Assembly: GCA_020160975.1 (NCBI GenBank)
Contig: JAIUPJ010000001.1
Span: forward strand, 330,001-362,000
Length of the DNA: 32,000 nt
DNA from: Candidatus Saccharimonadota bacterium
Lineage (GTDB): Bacteria; Patescibacteriota; Saccharimonadia; Saccharimonadales; Saccharimonadaceae
Reading direction: 5' to 3'
Positions 70 to 20,966 of the stretch are shown here, in pieces. Below the pieces are notes generated by a model, which saw only the letters and a program-made list of their open reading frames with translations, was not told where the DNA came from and searched no databases. The position numbers and the translations under genes were made by a program. Position 1 is the stretch's first letter. Every line of letters starts with the position of its first letter.

Positions 70-194
70 CTCTGGGCTCGACCCACCTTCGGCGGGCCCG
101 CGATTTCACGATTGAAAGCATAGGTTTTATCGGAAAGTCGCCTTGCGAACTGCTACCAGCAGTTCTCACTCTAGCCAACTGAGCTAAGCGCCCA
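70..194 (-). ncRNA. Candidate chimeric element copy A: tRNA 5'-half look-alike fused to a conserved 69-nt core
   Basis: The reverse complement starts GGGCGCTTAGCTCAGTTGGCTAGAG, which resembles an acceptor strand plus D-arm. It then runs into the core at 102-170, shared with 20820-20888. There is no anticodon arm and no complementary 3' acceptor strand. Strand and ends are not established. Confidence 0.4.
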
Positions 195-604: not shown

Positions 605-844
605 ATGGATTACACATTTAGTTGGTCATGGTTTGGAATTGGCATACTAGTATTACTAGCGGGCGTTGCACTCACGATTTGGTATCGGCAAATCGCAGAC
701 ATGTTTGGTAGCGGTGTAAGTAGCTACGAACGCTTTCGTATGTGGGGGCTTATCGGCTGTCTGCTCGGGTTTGTTGTCATGCTCAATATCCACACGCTTC
801 TGCTTGGCTGGTTCTTCAGCCTGCTCTTCGGTGGTCAACAATAG
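605..844 (+). CDS. Small hypothetical membrane protein (79 aa)
   Basis: This is the downstream part of track ORF 536..844, with two hydrophobic segments (GIGILVLLAGVALTIW, GLIGCLLGFVVML). I prefer ATG 605 because 536-604 overlaps the divergent tRNA-Ala promoter and TATACT (592-597) lies 7 nt upstream of ATG 605. The start is uncertain. Confidence 0.45.
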   Translation: MDYTFSWSWFGIGILVLLAGVALTIWYRQIADMFGSGVSSYERFRMWGLIGCLLGFVVMLNIHTLLLGWFFSLLFGGQQ

Positions 845-852
845 AGGCCAAG

Positions 853-1461
853 ATGAAAACTACACAAACAGTCGACTGGCTAGGACGGCCCTATGAAGGC
901 TACGTCGTCAACACAACCTTTTCTCCCAAGAATATAGAGATTATCAGTGATTGTATCAGTAAAATTGACAAGGAGTATGGCAGCGCGGTGTTTTGTATGC
1001 CACCAAGTTCACTGCATATTACTCTTCTCGACTGGATTGCTCCTCTCGTGCATTATGACGGAAGAAATAAGCAAGAACTATTTAGAAAACTATCACCAAG
1101 CTATTGCGCCGCGCTCAAACAAATATTAAAAGACCAGAAAAAAATATCAGTCACTTTTGATACCATCAACGTATCCTCTACGACGATCTATTTAACCGGT
1201 CATGATAACGGTGAGTTCCAAACAATACGAAAAAAATTTCTTGACACGGTTGTTCTGCTGCCAGGAACCAAACAACCACCGACTATCATTCACTGCTCAC
1301 TTGCTCGATTCACACAGCCGCTTGATCTGAATGATGTCAAGGACTTTATCCTCCAAGAATCGATATGTTTTACACAAGAAGTTGAGTCGTTTCATCTCGT
1401 GCACAGCATGAGAGAGCCTATGCTAGAGTTTGAGGTACTAAAAAAATTCTCTCTTGAGTAG
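853..1461 (+). CDS. 2H phosphoesterase superfamily protein (LigT / 2'-5' RNA ligase-like)
   Basis: Two H-x-T/S-x motifs are present (LHITLL and IHCSLA), spaced as in 2H enzymes. I chose the internal ATG 853 of track ORF 742..1461 because GAGG lies 7 nt upstream and the upstream part overlaps the preceding ORF. Confidence 0.65.
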   Translation: MKTTQTVDWLGRPYEGYVVNTTFSPKNIEIISDCISKIDKEYGSAVFCMPPSSLHITLLDWIAPLVHYDGRNKQELFRKLSPSYCAALKQILKDQKKISVTFDTINVSSTTIYLTGHDNGEFQTIRKKFLDTVVLLPGTKQPPTIIHCSLARFTQPLDLNDVKDFILQESICFTQEVESFHLVHSMREPMLEFEVLKKFSLE

Positions 1462-10890: not shown

Positions 10891-13752
10891 TATATGTACT
10901 TCATCATCAGAGGCAGCCTGAAGGTGCAGTTCATCTGCGGGCGGCAGTGTAGCCGCAGACGTCTCCCCGCTTTTTTGTGCAGGCGCTGTGCTAGCAGCAT
11001 CGTTCGATGCAGGGGTAAACGATATAACCTCGGACGGCTGAGTGCCGAGTGGTGCTGAAGAGAAAGGAGTTGCCTGTGGCATTGCTGCACTAAGAGGAAC
11101 AGCCGCTGGTGGTGTGGACGTTGTTTGACGAGGCGCTGGCATCGCTGCTGAAGGCACCGGCGAGCTCCCCCCGCCTGCCGTCATCTGCTTGCGCTTGGCC
11201 AGCCATTCATCCAGGAACGACGAGCCCGAGGGCTTTATTGATGAAGCGCTCGCTGGAGATCCGGGCAGGCTTGCACCAGCCGGCGTCTCTTTCTTGACAC
11301 TGAGACGAGCAAATATTTCTTGCTCGACCTGGGCTCGTGGCCGGCCAAACTTAGCAGCAGATAGTCGCTTCAAGGCATCGCTCAGTTGCTGGTTGGACTG
11401 CCCCATTGGCGGCACCCAACTCATACTAAACGGTGCCGATGGCACTCCTTGGATCTGCGCCACACAAACTGACTGATAATTTGGTAACTTTGTCAGGTCT
11501 TCGGCGTCAAAGACGGGGGTATAGCGCTTGACCATAATCTCCGCATCCGTGATACCGATTCGCCCCGTAATCGTAGTACCGACGTTACCAATAATCGCCT
11601 CGCGAAGTTCTTCCTTCAGCTGAGTCATGAACTGATTACCTAGCGTCAAACTAAGACGGTACTTACGAGCCTCAGAGAGAATGGTCTCAAAGCTGTCTGT
11701 TGCAAAGTTCTGGAACTCATCCACATAGAGAGTAAAGTCTTTGCGCTCTTCCTCTGGCATGTTTGCGCGCGCCATTGCCGCTGCCTGGAACTTCATCACG
11801 AAGATAATACCAAGCAAGCGTGAGTTGAGATCGCCCATCTTACCTTTCGACAAGTTCACAAGGAGGATTTTGTTATTGTTCATGATGTCAGAGAAATTGA
11901 AGCCGCTTTTTGTCTGCCCGATGATATTGCGCATTGCGTCGTTGCTAATAAATGGCCCAAATTTTGAGACCACCCAGCTAATCACCTCGCCAGCCTCACT
12001 GGAGCGCTGCGAAGCAGGAAACTCCTTGGTCCAAAAGTCCAATACATTTTGATCCGTCACATGCTTGAGCTTGCTCTTCATGAACTCTTCATCGATCAAC
12101 AGTTTTGGAATGTCAATAAAGGTACCGCCCGCGGGATCACTCATCAGCAAAAGTGCGCAGTTGCGGAAGATATGCTCGAGCCGAGGGCCCACAATACCCG
12201 TATGCCCTGGATCATATAGACCATAGAGCATGCTAATCGCCTCCTGGACGAGGAAGTCCTTTTGGTCAGGATGATCGAACTCAAACATGTTGAGCCCCGC
12301 AGGGTGTGCCATGTCGCTCGGATTAAAGTAGACAACGTCCTCAACTCGCTCCTTAGGAACCTTAGACAGCAAAGCTTCAACTGAATCGCCATGTGGGTCA
12401 ACAAAGGCAAAGCCACGGCCATCCATCATATCTTGATACGCTAGGTTCTCCTGTAGCACTGATTTACCGACACCTGTCTGACCGATAATATGGATATGAC
12501 GTCGCCGATCCTTATCGCCCAAGCGAATTGGTTTTTTGACGCCACGAAACTCGTTATAGCCAAGCAAGAGCCCCTCTTCCATGATTTGCGTTGGCCCATC
12601 CACCTGCTTGCTCATCTGACGTTCAACTTGCGAAGTAGGAATACTATTTTGATCAGGCAGGTGAAAAATCGAGGCTAACTCTATGCTATTGAGTATGTTG
12701 GCTCGTACTGCCTGTGGGAAGAATCGAAAGATAAACGAGGAAGCAAGTTCATCAACATTTTTGGAGAGCGTAAATCTGAATCCATTGTTGCTTGGCGAGT
12801 CAAACAGAGCAAACGCCGACACAACATTTTTGAGTAGAGACTGCGCTTGTCCAGATGTATTCGACGAAACAACGATGCGGATCAATGTTTCGAACCCAGG
12901 GTATCTGGTTTTCTCGTCGATCGCTTCAATCATTTGCTGCTCGACTGAAGTCAATTGCGTATCGACAGAATGCTCTGTCTGTTGGTGTTCTGCAGGATTC
13001 GGTGGTCGCCACAGAGCTTCGGTGATATCCCGCACCGCAAACATGCTGCCATGAGATGCCTTACCCGTCGCACGATCTTTCTTGATCTTTTCCACTGCTT
13101 TACGTGACGCGTGCACCCAGCCTTCTGGCGCTGGGCGAATCAATATTTGAATCCCAATCCCATCTTCTCGACCGGCAGCCGAGAGCGCATTGAGAAGTGC
13201 TCGCGAGGCGTCGCGCTTTGTTTCGGCGTAGGTAGCGATTGGTTTTGAAAAGTGCTTCTTGAGTGTCAGCTCGCCACCGATTGTTCCGCTCAATTTACCT
13301 ACTTCACTAAACACCGTGTGTTCAGTCACCTCTTCGAGCCGAGACGATGGGTACGCCGCTGCTACCGCTTGGCGCACTGCGTCAGTTAGCACAGTAGGGA
13401 CAACAGCATAGTAGTGAACCAGCCCGCCCTTGGCAACAATCTCAAACGCCATATGTCTTTGGCCATACACTTTGCTTTTAAACCCTTTGGTGATCGTACT
13501 GGCAATAATGTTATACATGACACTCGCCTGCGACAATGCCTCCTCTGTCACATCGCGTTTATCGCGGCTATTGACTTCGATATCGTCAGTAGCAGGAGGC
13601 AGATGAATGAGAATCGGCACCATTTTTAGACCCCGCTCATAATTCTTTGCTTCCCGAAGGGTCCGACGGTAGACCAAAAACGCTCCCACAGCCGTCGCAA
13701 TCACAACAACAGCGAATCCAAACAAGCTAACAAAAACAGCTGCAGTATTCAT
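10879..13752 (-). CDS. VirD4/TraG/TraD-like type IV secretion coupling-protein-family ATPase, with an N-terminal TM and a Pro/Ala/Ser-rich tail
   Basis: 957 aa. Walker A is IIGQTGVGKS and Walker B is LYVDEFQNF, followed by ARKYRLSLTLGNQF, which is typical of the TraG-D_C / T4SS DNA-transfer ATPase family. The roughly 170-aa C-terminus is low complexity. Confidence 0.75.
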   Translation of the reverse strand: MNTAAVFVSLFGFAVVVIATAVGAFLVYRRTLREAKNYERGLKMVPILIHLPPATDDIEVNSRDKRDVTEEALSQASVMYNIIASTITKGFKSKVYGQRHMAFEIVAKGGLVHYYAVVPTVLTDAVRQAVAAAYPSSRLEEVTEHTVFSEVGKLSGTIGGELTLKKHFSKPIATYAETKRDASRALLNALSAAGREDGIGIQILIRPAPEGWVHASRKAVEKIKKDRATGKASHGSMFAVRDITEALWRPPNPAEHQQTEHSVDTQLTSVEQQMIEAIDEKTRYPGFETLIRIVVSSNTSGQAQSLLKNVVSAFALFDSPSNNGFRFTLSKNVDELASSFIFRFFPQAVRANILNSIELASIFHLPDQNSIPTSQVERQMSKQVDGPTQIMEEGLLLGYNEFRGVKKPIRLGDKDRRRHIHIIGQTGVGKSVLQENLAYQDMMDGRGFAFVDPHGDSVEALLSKVPKERVEDVVYFNPSDMAHPAGLNMFEFDHPDQKDFLVQEAISMLYGLYDPGHTGIVGPRLEHIFRNCALLLMSDPAGGTFIDIPKLLIDEEFMKSKLKHVTDQNVLDFWTKEFPASQRSSEAGEVISWVVSKFGPFISNDAMRNIIGQTKSGFNFSDIMNNNKILLVNLSKGKMGDLNSRLLGIIFVMKFQAAAMARANMPEEERKDFTLYVDEFQNFATDSFETILSEARKYRLSLTLGNQFMTQLKEELREAIIGNVGTTITGRIGITDAEIMVKRYTPVFDAEDLTKLPNYQSVCVAQIQGVPSAPFSMSWVPPMGQSNQQLSDALKRLSAAKFGRPRAQVEQEIFARLSVKKETPAGASLPGSPASASSIKPSGSSFLDEWLAKRKQMTAGGGSSPVPSAAMPAPRQTTSTPPAAVPLSAAMPQATPFSSAPLGTQPSEVISFTPASNDAASTAPAQKSGETSAATLPPADELHLQAASDDEVHIKLR

Positions 13753-19895: not shown

Positions 19896-20567
19896 TTATG
19901 TCTTTTTTCTATTTATAACTACGTCGGAAACTTCAATATTTTTGGGTAGATCCAAAATCTGCTTGGCAAATATAGCGATATCCCTCGGATCCATCCAGTA
20001 CAAACCGTCATCAGTTGGATCATAATTTAGCTCTTTCTCAAATAATTTTGTCTTCATGCCGCCAGGATAAAATGCGATAACCCTGGATGAAGTATCTTTT
20101 AGCTCGGCCTGCAATGCCTCGGTATAGCCGCGCTGTGCCCACTTAGAGGCGGCATAGACCGCATGGCTAGGATTACCTTTTCGCCCTGCTGTCGATATGA
20201 CACTTAAAATGTCCGTGCCATCTTGTTTGATGCGGTCGATGAGGAAGGATGTCAGCAGAATATTTGATTCCACATTCGTCGCCATCAGACGCTTTACTTC
20301 ATCTTTAGTAATACTCCTGATCGGTTGTTCGCTGTATACACCAGCGTTGTTGATGAGTATCTCTAGGGGCTCATCGAGCGCGAGTATCTCTTGAGCAGCA
20401 GCCTCTACGTCCTTACCTACAGCTAAGTCATGGAGAAAGTTGTAGTCTGCGACTGGACATTCACGTCGAGATACATTGACGACAATTTTACCAGCATCTT
20501 TGTATAGTTTTGCTAGCTGGTAGCCTAGCCCGTCACTCGCTCCAGTAATGATTATCATTAAAATCAT
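19896..20567 (-). CDS. Short-chain dehydrogenase/reductase (SDR) family oxidoreductase
   Basis: TGASDGLG Rossmann motif, NNAG, and the catalytic YAASK (YxxxK). Confidence 0.85.
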   Translation of the reverse strand: MILMIIITGASDGLGYQLAKLYKDAGKIVVNVSRRECPVADYNFLHDLAVGKDVEAAAQEILALDEPLEILINNAGVYSEQPIRSITKDEVKRLMATNVESNILLTSFLIDRIKQDGTDILSVISTAGRKGNPSHAVYAASKWAQRGYTEALQAELKDTSSRVIAFYPGGMKTKLFEKELNYDPTDDGLYWMDPRDIAIFAKQILDLPKNIEVSDVVINRKKT

Positions 20568-20655
20568 TATATCAGTTATTATCTCTTTTTGTTTGGGCGC
20601 GAAACACTGACGGCTATGATATCCAAATGGATGATAATCCTAGGACTTTCGAATT

Positions 20656-20731
20656 TGGTCGGGATGACAAGACTTGAACTTGCGACCTCGCCACCCCCAG
20701 CGGCGCGCGCTACCAACTGCGCCACATCCCG
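20656..20731 (-). tRNA. tRNA-Pro (anticodon GGG), CCA encoded
   Basis: Reverse complement is CGGGATG TG GCGC AGTTGGTA GCGC G CGCCG CTGGGGG TGGCG AGGTC GCAAG TTCAAGT CTTGT CATCCCG A CCA. Confidence 0.93.
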
Positions 20732-20788
20732 ATATCTTATTATTTTACCACTTGCTGAACGTATACCTAGGGTGGCTCGGCCCTCGCC
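20728..20788. repeat. 61-bp perfect direct repeat, copy 1 (promoter plus first bases of tRNA-Pro)
   Basis: 61/61 identical to 20906-20966. On the minus strand it contains the extended -10 TGGTAAAAT (20742-20750). Confidence 0.95.
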
Positions 20789-20910
20789 CCAGCGGCGCGG
20801 TCACGTTCCGCGACCCCCAGATTTCACGATTGAAAGCATAGCTTTCATCGGAAAGTCTGTTTCCGAACTGCCACTGGCAGTTCTCACTACCAACAGCGCG
20901 CTCGTCCCGA
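20789..20910 (-). ncRNA. Candidate chimeric element copy B: tRNA-Pro 5'-half look-alike, 69-nt core and anticodon-loop-like fragments
   Basis: The reverse complement is TCGGGACGAGCGCGCTGTTGGTAG, then the core (20820-20888), then CTGGGGGTCGCGGAACGTGACCGCGCCGCTGGGG. No T-arm or matching 3' acceptor strand is present. It has its own copy of the tRNA-Pro promoter. Confidence 0.4.
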
Positions 20911-20966
20911 TATCTTATTATTTTACCACTTGCTGAACGTATACCTAGGGTGGCTCGGCCCTCGCC
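20906..20966. repeat. 61-bp perfect direct repeat, copy 2
   Basis: Identical to 20728-20788, offset by 178 bp. Confidence 0.95.

Follow-up and report, generated by a model that had tools for sequence, protein, structure and literature searches.

The window, the whole stretch of 32,000 nucleotides analyzed here, comes from a Candidatus Saccharimonadota bacterium; its L20 protein is 100% identical to one assigned to Candidatus Saccharimonas. Its minus strand carries the genes for 16S rRNA, tRNA-Ala, RNase P RNA, tmRNA, tRNA-Pro(GGG) and further tRNAs. On the same strand we found two copies of a non-coding unit of roughly 90 nucleotides, composed of three hairpins, which we call element E. Copies A and B are 79% identical, and each is embedded in remnants of a tRNA gene. 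The features are listed in Table 1; names beginning with L denote sequences used for comparison.

Table 1. Positions of element E and associated features in the window
Feature	Position	Strand	Basis or remark
tRNA-Val(TAC), 5' part of the intact gene, which continues beyond the window start	1-34	minus	Rfam partial tRNA match; ARAGORN on L092-L094
GAGCCC, match to tRNA-Val T-loop 3' part and start of the T stem (suggestive)	74-79	minus	directly 3' of copy A; L092 tRNA-Val ...GGGGGTTCGAGCCCCTC...
Element E, copy A	80-168	minus	H1 147-165, H2 100-141, H3 80-98; covariance model 97.7 bits
Copy of tRNA-Val(TAC) positions 1-25 (acceptor 5' strand and D arm)	169-193	minus	directly 5' of copy A; 23/25 identical; full tRNA-Val from L092
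Insertion of about 72 nt in the T-loop of a partial third tRNA-Ala copy, probably a degenerate E relative	284-358	minus	TGA, hairpin, GCGAAGG linker, GGCGAC..GTCGCC stem
tRNA-Pro(GGG), intact working gene adjoining copy B	20656-20731	minus	ARAGORN, Rfam
GCGCCGCTGG, tRNA-Pro relic (position 26, anticodon-stem 5' strand, start of anticodon loop)	20789-20798	minus	directly after copy B
Element E, copy B	20799-20886	minus	H1 20865-20883, H2 20818-20859, H3 20799-20815; covariance model 109.7 bits
Diverged copy of tRNA-Pro(GGG) positions 1-22	20887-20909	minus	sequence; the fragment in strain L088 equals the real tRNA
62-nt perfect direct repeat, upstream copy	20905-20966	minus	partner at 20727-20788; repeat search: 2 copies, 100% identical, spacing 178

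Contigs of the same species that reach past the window start identified the tRNA at its edge as tRNA-Val(TAC). On one of them, L092, the rRNA operon has the order 16S, tRNA-Ala, tRNA-Val, tRNA-Ile, a 178-aa ORF, 23S and 5S. The ORF between tRNA-Ile and 23S has no Pfam match. The 23S rRNA match (L092:17746-21128) spans 3383 nt, compared to 2925 positions in the model. The gene thus probably contains an insertion of about 450 nt, of the sort reported for rRNA genes of CPR bacteria. In the window, an ORF antisense to the rRNA operon is located between the 16S rRNA and tRNA-Ala genes (742-1461, plus strand). It has a borderline Pfam match to the 2'-5' RNA ligase/2H phosphoesterase superfamily (28 bits, cut-off 27), and an enzyme of the RNA-end-healing type is a curious find within an rRNA spacer rich in broken tRNA copies. 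This LigT-like gene by copy A was considered as a recurring partner of E and rejected, as no homologue is found near E in other loci.

The initial annotation described a conserved unit of 69 nt at both loci. Its core is real: the 22-mer CTATGCTTTCAATCGTGAAATC (minus-strand sense) is present at two places only, 102-123 and 20820-20841, and the other shared blocks were confirmed. In 100 shuffles the 22-mer was not expected at all, even with three mismatches allowed. The length had to be revised to about 89 nt, since the unit also includes a third hairpin, whose loop is GAA. This hairpin is formed by GGCCCGCC-GAA-GGTGGGTC in copy A and by GGTCGCG-GAA-CGTGACC in copy B; the stems differ in sequence with the pairing kept. 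The compensatory change reported earlier in the first hairpin, GAACTGCT/AGCAGTTC in copy A and GAACTGCC/GGCAGTTC in copy B, was also confirmed. Copy B folds into the three consensus hairpins at -41.1 kcal/mol (z -5.9). Copy A folds at -36 kcal/mol (z -3.95) and carries two disruptive changes in the apex of H2, AAAACC as compared to GAAAGC in the other copies, which leave the apex unpaired. A covariance-model search of the window returned only these two copies, even with filters off.

The fold was defined by alignment of 19 copies. Element E begins with U/C-G-A, followed by H1 (7-8 bp), a GNRA-type linker (GCAAGG, GGAAAC or GUAAGG), H2, which is a long bulged hairpin with a nearly invariant apex, GG, and H3 with its GAA loop, and measures about 89-93 nt. 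The three hairpins comprise 33 pairs. Across the alignment 97.8% of the cells are paired, and 18 pairs have changed on both sides. These statistics were matched by none of 500 shuffles, and controls with slid partners were only 32-45% paired. RNAalifold independently returned the identical three hairpins. At columns 82-90, in the third hairpin, each of the 19 copies has a G·U pair, and elsewhere pairs alternate with G·U. Such pairs become A·C mismatches when the opposite strand is read, and folding indicated that H3 does not form on the plus strand. The fold is therefore that of the tRNA-sense strand, either as RNA or as single-stranded DNA. One possibility raised initially, a plus-strand RNA ending in a tail complementary to the 5' halves of tRNAs, was rejected on these grounds. 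The linker between H1 and H2 reads G-N-A-A in 18 of the 19 copies (GCAA, GGAA, GUAA), a pattern typical of RNA tertiary motifs; the resemblance is only suggestive.

Extending the search to relatives with a covariance model had been proposed as a check. About 35 further copies of E were found across Saccharibacteria genomes and metagenomes, in genome fragments only. When one genome per species was scanned for an 18-mer, 54 matches were obtained, of which six are true copies, in five Saccharibacteria or unclassified genomes, and the remainder are due to chance. Scanning metagenomes with a degenerate pattern added 15 more distinct loci. The covariance model (built from 19 copies) then detected further, more diverged copies in these loci. 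Against 449 kb of unrelated DNA the model produced a single partial match of 29 nt, which is the seed word itself. Three pattern scans of viral contigs gave no copy, and blastn found no match in phage and plasmid collections.

Element E had been thought to belong to no described family, and this view is upheld. Rfam 15 searched at E-value ≤10 over either copy gave only a chance match to RAGATH-30 (17 bits, compared to a gathering score of 59.5). A search of the window at gathering scores reported nothing other than tRNAs at the E loci, and nothing was found at E-value ≤0.1 over L056, L068 and L071. Rfam models of hammerhead, twister, pistol, hatchet and HDV ribozymes and of group I and II introns do not match E. 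A full-text literature search, with the core sequence itself included as a query, found no description. As far as we could find in Rfam and the literature, E is undescribed.

Each window copy interrupts a partial copy of the tRNA gene that it adjoins. Directly upstream of copy A, 23 of 25 positions match the 5' part of a tRNA. The initial annotation recognized this resemblance and assigned the neighbor as tRNA-Ile; the adjoining tRNA is in fact tRNA-Val(TAC). Immediately downstream, six nucleotides could be a relic of the tRNA-Val T-loop, although so short a match is only suggestive. Copy B is located between the first 22 positions of tRNA-Pro(GGG) and GCGCCGCTGG, which continues into GGCGAGG, a microhomology of 7 nt at a duplication junction. 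The remnants had been judged too partial to form a tRNA. This is correct, with the amendment that copy B retains more of the tRNA than was recognized. ARAGORN and Rfam made no tRNA call at 70-194 or 20789-20910, and removal of E restores a tRNA at neither locus, so copies A and B are not tRNAs.

Copy B lies in a tandem unit of 178 nt defined by the 62-nt perfect repeat and the GGCGAGG microhomology. The repeat holds the upstream region of tRNA-Pro, the first 5 nt of the tRNA and an extended -10-like motif, TGGTAAAAT, which was read by eye and not called by a consensus scan. Across strains, the promoter-region duplicate upstream of copy B is kept, and the tRNA-Pro 5' fragment equals the real gene in one strain and has four clustered differences in others. 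This pattern shows gene conversion between the tandem tRNA-Pro copies. A 9-mer, GGACGAGCG, common to the 5' flanks of copy B and of the copy at L017 was judged compatible with chance given the many comparisons made.

The same relationship holds throughout the family. Every copy of E is co-oriented with the neighboring tRNA and has collinear sequence of that tRNA on both flanks. The host is a partial tRNA copy adjoining an intact gene of the same identity, except that the 9.7-kb L068 locus contains no intact copy of its tRNA-Gln(CTG). The distance between fragment and gene is about 150-190 nt. Insertion occurred at tRNA positions 5/6, 22-25, 37/38, about 46 and 54-56. The T-loop is the commonest site, the 3' side of the D arm is that of both window copies, and the acceptor stem and variable region were each seen once. 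The junction of D arm and anticodon stem, initially proposed as the site of insertion, is thus one site among several that also include 37/38 and the element's own H3. At L034, L056, L068 and L071, one E is nested in another, having entered H3 of the outer copy at GGGGT^CGCG, a sequence that resembles the T-arm target GGGTT^CGA. At L073 the flanks of E come from two different tRNAs. L078 and L073 agree in E and in the sequence 3' of it but not in the 5' flank. In L078 this flank is formed by an ORF (L078:1-1800) that ends just upstream of E and apparently replaced the original flank; by eye, the C-terminal motif of the ORF (…NVIESVNGVLRELTRRHRG…) is transposase-like.

Two arrangements are found. 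In the upstream arrangement, the 5' part of a tRNA is followed by E, a relic of the next tRNA sequence, a spacer and the intact tRNA. E is located at 22-25 in copies A and B and at L022, L030, L034, L063, L071 and L075, and at 37/38 at L024 and L034:1590. In the downstream arrangement, the intact tRNA is followed by a terminator-like hairpin and an inverted, uninterrupted copy of the tRNA 3' part. The variable region and T-stem 5' strand then follow in direct orientation, interrupted by E before the T-loop 3' part continues to CCA and the native downstream sequence. This arrangement is found at L017, L034, L059, L067, L069, L070, L072, L076 and L077, and at tRNA-Ile in same-species contigs. 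Inverted, uninterrupted tRNA pieces are located upstream of T-loop copies in at least eight loci, and also beside the tRNA-Ile and tRNA-Ala of the window species.

The tRNA-Ala gene of the window shows a similar layout at 195-447. A direct piece of the T arm 3' part (271-283) adjoins the insertion at 284-358, and an inverted copy of the tRNA-Ala 3' part is found at 381-447 (inverted T arm at 381-395), so that the region is organized as direct-inverted-direct, as at E sites. The insertion was not detected by the covariance model. On the minus strand, 3' of tRNA-Ala, the region begins with a long palindrome at the CCA end of the tRNA and contains more tRNA-like scraps, ending in CTCCACCA. A third, variant copy of E in the same species (copy C; 76 bits, with a different second hairpin) is located just past the window start, at L092:16595-16790. 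Its site is the T-loop of an incomplete tRNA-Ile copy, with an inverted tRNA-Ile 3' part before it.

The junctions of E are unlike those produced by classical transposases. Compared to the intact neighbor, 0-4 target nucleotides are missing, with 1-2 nt of microhomology. No target-site duplication was found; the longest direct word shared by the 15-nt flanks is 2-5 nt. Terminal inverted repeats are also absent: when the first 20 nt were compared with the last 20 nt in 17 copies, no inverted word exceeded 2-6 nt. The two ends do not pair with each other and lie in separate hairpins, H1 and H3. The trinucleotides and tetranucleotides preceding E (TAG, GAG, GCG, AGG, GGG, GGGG) share only a near-constant terminal G, and the fixed tetra- or pentanucleotide that IS200/IS605 elements require directly 5' of their left end is absent.

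Such junctions, together with the inverted triplications centered on hairpins, would also be produced if E were a passive filler, a block of hairpins copied from elsewhere into a breakpoint by template switching at fragile, hairpin-rich tRNA genes and devoid of mobility machinery. The tRNA-Ala relic, whose T-loop is interrupted at the same position by a different insertion that the model does not detect, is in line with this. However, random templated insertions would show variable ends and no covariation, whereas about 35 copies in many genomes have the same ends, and their three hairpins and H2 apex are kept by selection. Moreover, copy B resides in a simple tandem duplication, and in one otherwise intact tRNA-Gln the site of insertion shows no rearrangement. 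We consider passive filling quite unlikely.

The copy in tRNA-Gln(CTG) at L068 raises the alternative that E is a tRNA intron, self-spliced or spliced by an enzyme, and that truncated copies are dead by-products of intron homing. This gene is otherwise perfect. E occupies its T-loop, its acceptor and anticodon stems are perfectly paired with compensatory changes relative to L057, and the locus has no intact copy to replace it. Two other copies are at the canonical position 37/38, nested copies resemble twintrons, and by eye the 5' GUGAG and 3' AC recall group II boundaries. On the other hand, when E was removed in silico using 121 boundary combinations for each of 25 copies, a tRNA was restored in one only, the rest having no 5' or no 3' half. 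Group I and II cores and known small ribozymes are absent at Rfam E-value ≤10, and inspection of the junctions revealed no bulge-helix-bulge motif. The intron was therefore rejected as a general explanation, and we regard this reading as very unlikely. Where tRNA-Gln(UUG) is present, tRNA-Gln(CTG) may not be required. The L068 copy is either a recent insertion into a dispensable gene or a true intron.

A partial tRNA beside an intact one is the classic footprint of integration into tRNA genes. The fragments could accordingly be attachment-site scars of integrase-driven integrative elements, with E as the conserved end of elements since deleted. The region 3' of tRNA-Pro is island-like and differs between strains, and an archaeal precedent combines a tRNA 5' fragment with a recombinase-bearing element (PMC3293823). 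This explanation is most improbable in our assessment. E does not abut the tRNA fragment but lies inside it, between stretches of collinear tRNA sequence. The 5' fragments are duplicated along with promoter regions, only about 150-190 nt separate fragment and gene, no integrase is found near any copy, and E is absent from the viral, phage and plasmid collections.

The search for machinery was extended to the genes around E. No integrase, transposase or reverse transcriptase is encoded among the 20 flanking genes at 12 loci, whose Pfam matches are to housekeeping families, and TnpA and TnpB are likewise absent from the 20 flanking genes in the genome fragments. Retron features were not found, as there is neither an adjacent reverse-transcriptase gene nor a1/a2-like inverted termini. 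An all-against-all comparison of ORFs from 21 loci yielded only a spurious ORF running through E itself. As the loci share no gene family, E appears to be non-autonomous or to spread without a dedicated protein.

Comparison of orthologous sites provides evidence for mobility. In the identity matrix, E copies group by subfamily and not by locus. The most informative site is the orthologous tRNA-Pro(GGG), located between rplT and an M50 peptidase gene. L063 shares about 12 kb of synteny with the window (protein identity 41-82%) and carries E at the same place upstream of this tRNA. The two copies are only 85% identical to each other. Copy B shares 94% identity with a copy at a tRNA-Leu gene of another genome, and the L063 copy shares 95% with one that is associated with tRNA-Lys in its own sample. 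At the same locus, L099 and L103/L104 have neither E nor a partial tRNA duplicate, and other relatives lack such a tRNA altogether. Vertical orthology of the two copies was first favored and then weakened by the subfamily identities and the empty sites in closer relatives. These findings, together with the tRNA lacking in others, make independent insertion at the same tRNA-Pro site more likely. Within the species of the window, copy B is present in four of four strains and copy A in three of three; all same-species contigs carry the copies, and neither filled/empty polymorphism nor a transposition intermediate was observed.

A host function could also account for conservation of E. The initial annotation had considered a small RNA that borrows tRNA promoters. 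In this explanation, E would be useful to the host, expressed from duplicated tRNA promoters or the rRNA operon and released by tRNA-processing enzymes such as RNase P, with the tRNA pieces serving as an expression cassette. The strong covariation, the GNRA-type linker and the invariant sense-strand G·U pair are in its favor, as are the perfect promoter-region duplicate with TGGTAAAAT kept upstream of copy B and the location of copies A and C inside the rRNA operon. Between the window and L063, E is as conserved as tRNA-Pro itself, although the intergenic DNA is unalignable. The distribution is patchy, however: the exact 18-mer is found in only five species-level genomes, and E is absent at syntenic loci of relatives. 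Many copies lie behind terminator-like hairpins, nesting destroys the outer copy, copy A and the relic at 284-358 are degenerate, and positional counterparts belong to different subfamilies. Overall, a host function appears unlikely.

Taken together, we favor, with somewhat better than even confidence, that E is a non-autonomous mobile element, with a single-strand fold under selection, that targets tRNA genes and survives in spare partial copies of them. Among the possibilities raised initially, a miniature element inserting into tRNA genes is the best supported: about 35 more copies, nesting, grouping by subfamily across loci and orthologous sites that are empty all point to it. We infer from these that E moves, as RNA or as single-stranded DNA. 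A GNRA-type linker, an invariant wobble pair and tRNA-like conservation would also be expected of a host-selected RNA.

The proposed mechanism is as follows. E would insert into tRNA genes 3' of a G or a run of G, always in the orientation of the tRNA, replacing 0-4 nt. It would favor the T-loop (54-56) and the 3' side of the D arm (22-26) and enter at 37/38 less frequently. Because insertion into a single-copy tRNA gene would normally be lethal, persisting copies would be those in spare partial tRNA copies; such lethality presumably filters the insertions that survive. The spare copy may arise by tandem duplication at short microhomology, as suggested for copy B, or by direct-inverted-direct triplication, as through template switching at hairpins. 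It would then decay or be partly homogenized through gene conversion. Decay is seen in copy A, with its broken H2 apex, and in the degenerate relative at 284-358. E is probably transcribed from such sites, copy B from the duplicated tRNA promoter and copy A within the rRNA operon. The link to inverted triplications may mean that rearrangement and insertion are a single replication-error event, and not transposition followed by selection.

In a more specific version, which we hold to be unlikely, E would be an RNA-based mobile element. A structured RNA of about 90 nt, possibly catalytic, would enter exposed tRNA loops (T-loop, D-arm region, anticodon loop) and be fixed in the genome by copying. 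In some genes, such as tRNA-Gln at L068, it would act as an intron, at a position not canonical for tRNA introns and in a bacterium, that has to be removed from the transcript.

The nearest analogues of E are found in Archaea. Mobile tRNA introns at non-canonical positions in Thermoproteales are covered by two reviews (PMC4090602, PMC4033280), and in Caldiarchaeum a tRNA gene is disrupted, with a tRNA 5' fragment and a recombinase-bearing element (PMC3293823). Similar to E, the archaeal introns consist of related short sequences at several positions (D arm, anticodon loop, T arm) of different tRNA genes. In these systems, too, a tRNA 5' fragment may sit upstream of the gene, and transposition-like spread has been inferred. 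E lacks their defining features. The archaeal introns have a bulge-helix-bulge cut by the splicing endonuclease and reside in complete, functional genes, whereas E is bacterial, has no bulge-helix-bulge, and 24 of 25 host copies are truncated.

Several other systems share part of these properties. Bacterial miniature non-autonomous elements include MITEs as well as the palindromic elements of Rickettsia, whose insertion sites lie in genes for proteins and RNAs. Like E, they are about 100 nt long, non-coding, hairpin-rich, multicopy and tolerated inside genes. Unlike MITEs, E has no terminal inverted repeats or target-site duplication, is restricted to tRNA genes in sense orientation and is accompanied by a partial duplicate of its target. 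Palindrome-associated transposable elements derived from IS200/IS605 enter next to a fixed target of 4-5 nt, on its 3' side, with no loss of target bases. They resemble E in their strand-specific, bulged, imperfect hairpins and lack of target duplication, and depend on an enzyme in trans. E follows only a G or a G-run, with 0-4 nt of the target replaced, and neither TnpA nor TnpB is encoded by its flanking genes. Eukaryotic tRNA-derived SINEs are multicopy and non-autonomous, with a tRNA-like 5' head fused to a conserved core, all of which recalls E. In E, however, the tRNA part is copied locally from the neighboring gene at each site, and there is no tail. We know of no reverse-transcriptase partner for E.

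The rearrangements at E sites have a counterpart in the tandem inversion duplications of bacteria, for which a model has reportedly been developed by the Roth lab. Similarities include the direct-inverted-direct order, junctions centered on hairpins (a terminator hairpin, tRNA arms) and remodeling by later deletion. Template switching at quasipalindromes has been described in bacteria (PMC7202029). These processes account for the spare tRNA copy, but not for the conserved element inside it.

If E is mobile, its niche would consist of tRNA genes only, in a genome of about 1 Mb, with a partial duplicate of the target wherever the element persists. This would explain the tRNA fragments, inverted tRNA pieces and scrambled order in rRNA and tRNA loci of Saccharibacteria, and would provide a natural system for how essential single-copy RNA genes survive insertion, through template-switch duplication and gene conversion. 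The covariance model allows annotators to recognize and mask such regions. The GNRA-type linker, invariant wobble pair and strict sense orientation leave room for RNA-mediated insertion or for a non-canonical bacterial tRNA intron. If the RNA-element reading is true, E would be a bacterial counterpart of the archaeal mobile tRNA introns that uses a different chemistry. Cultivated strains of Saccharibacteria make both readings directly testable.

Two observations were made near tRNA-Pro(GGG). The DNA directly 3' of this gene (19896-20655 in the window, and the equivalents in L085-L088) is wholly different from strain to strain within the species, with a gene for a short-chain dehydrogenase in the window and unrelated small ORFs in other strains. 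As the adjoining DNA differs in this way, the 3' end of tRNA-Pro looks like a hotspot of integration or replacement. In addition, several relatives contain a conserved stretch of about 110 nt 3' of the M50 peptidase gene (…GTATGATTTTCCTAACATCATA…GTGAGAAGACCCACCTTGCA…GCGGGGAAT…), on the minus strands of L099:7000-7250, L103:6880-7060, L097:6750-6980 and L063 (about 12450-12600). The window has no obvious counterpart of this stretch, which may be another structured RNA.
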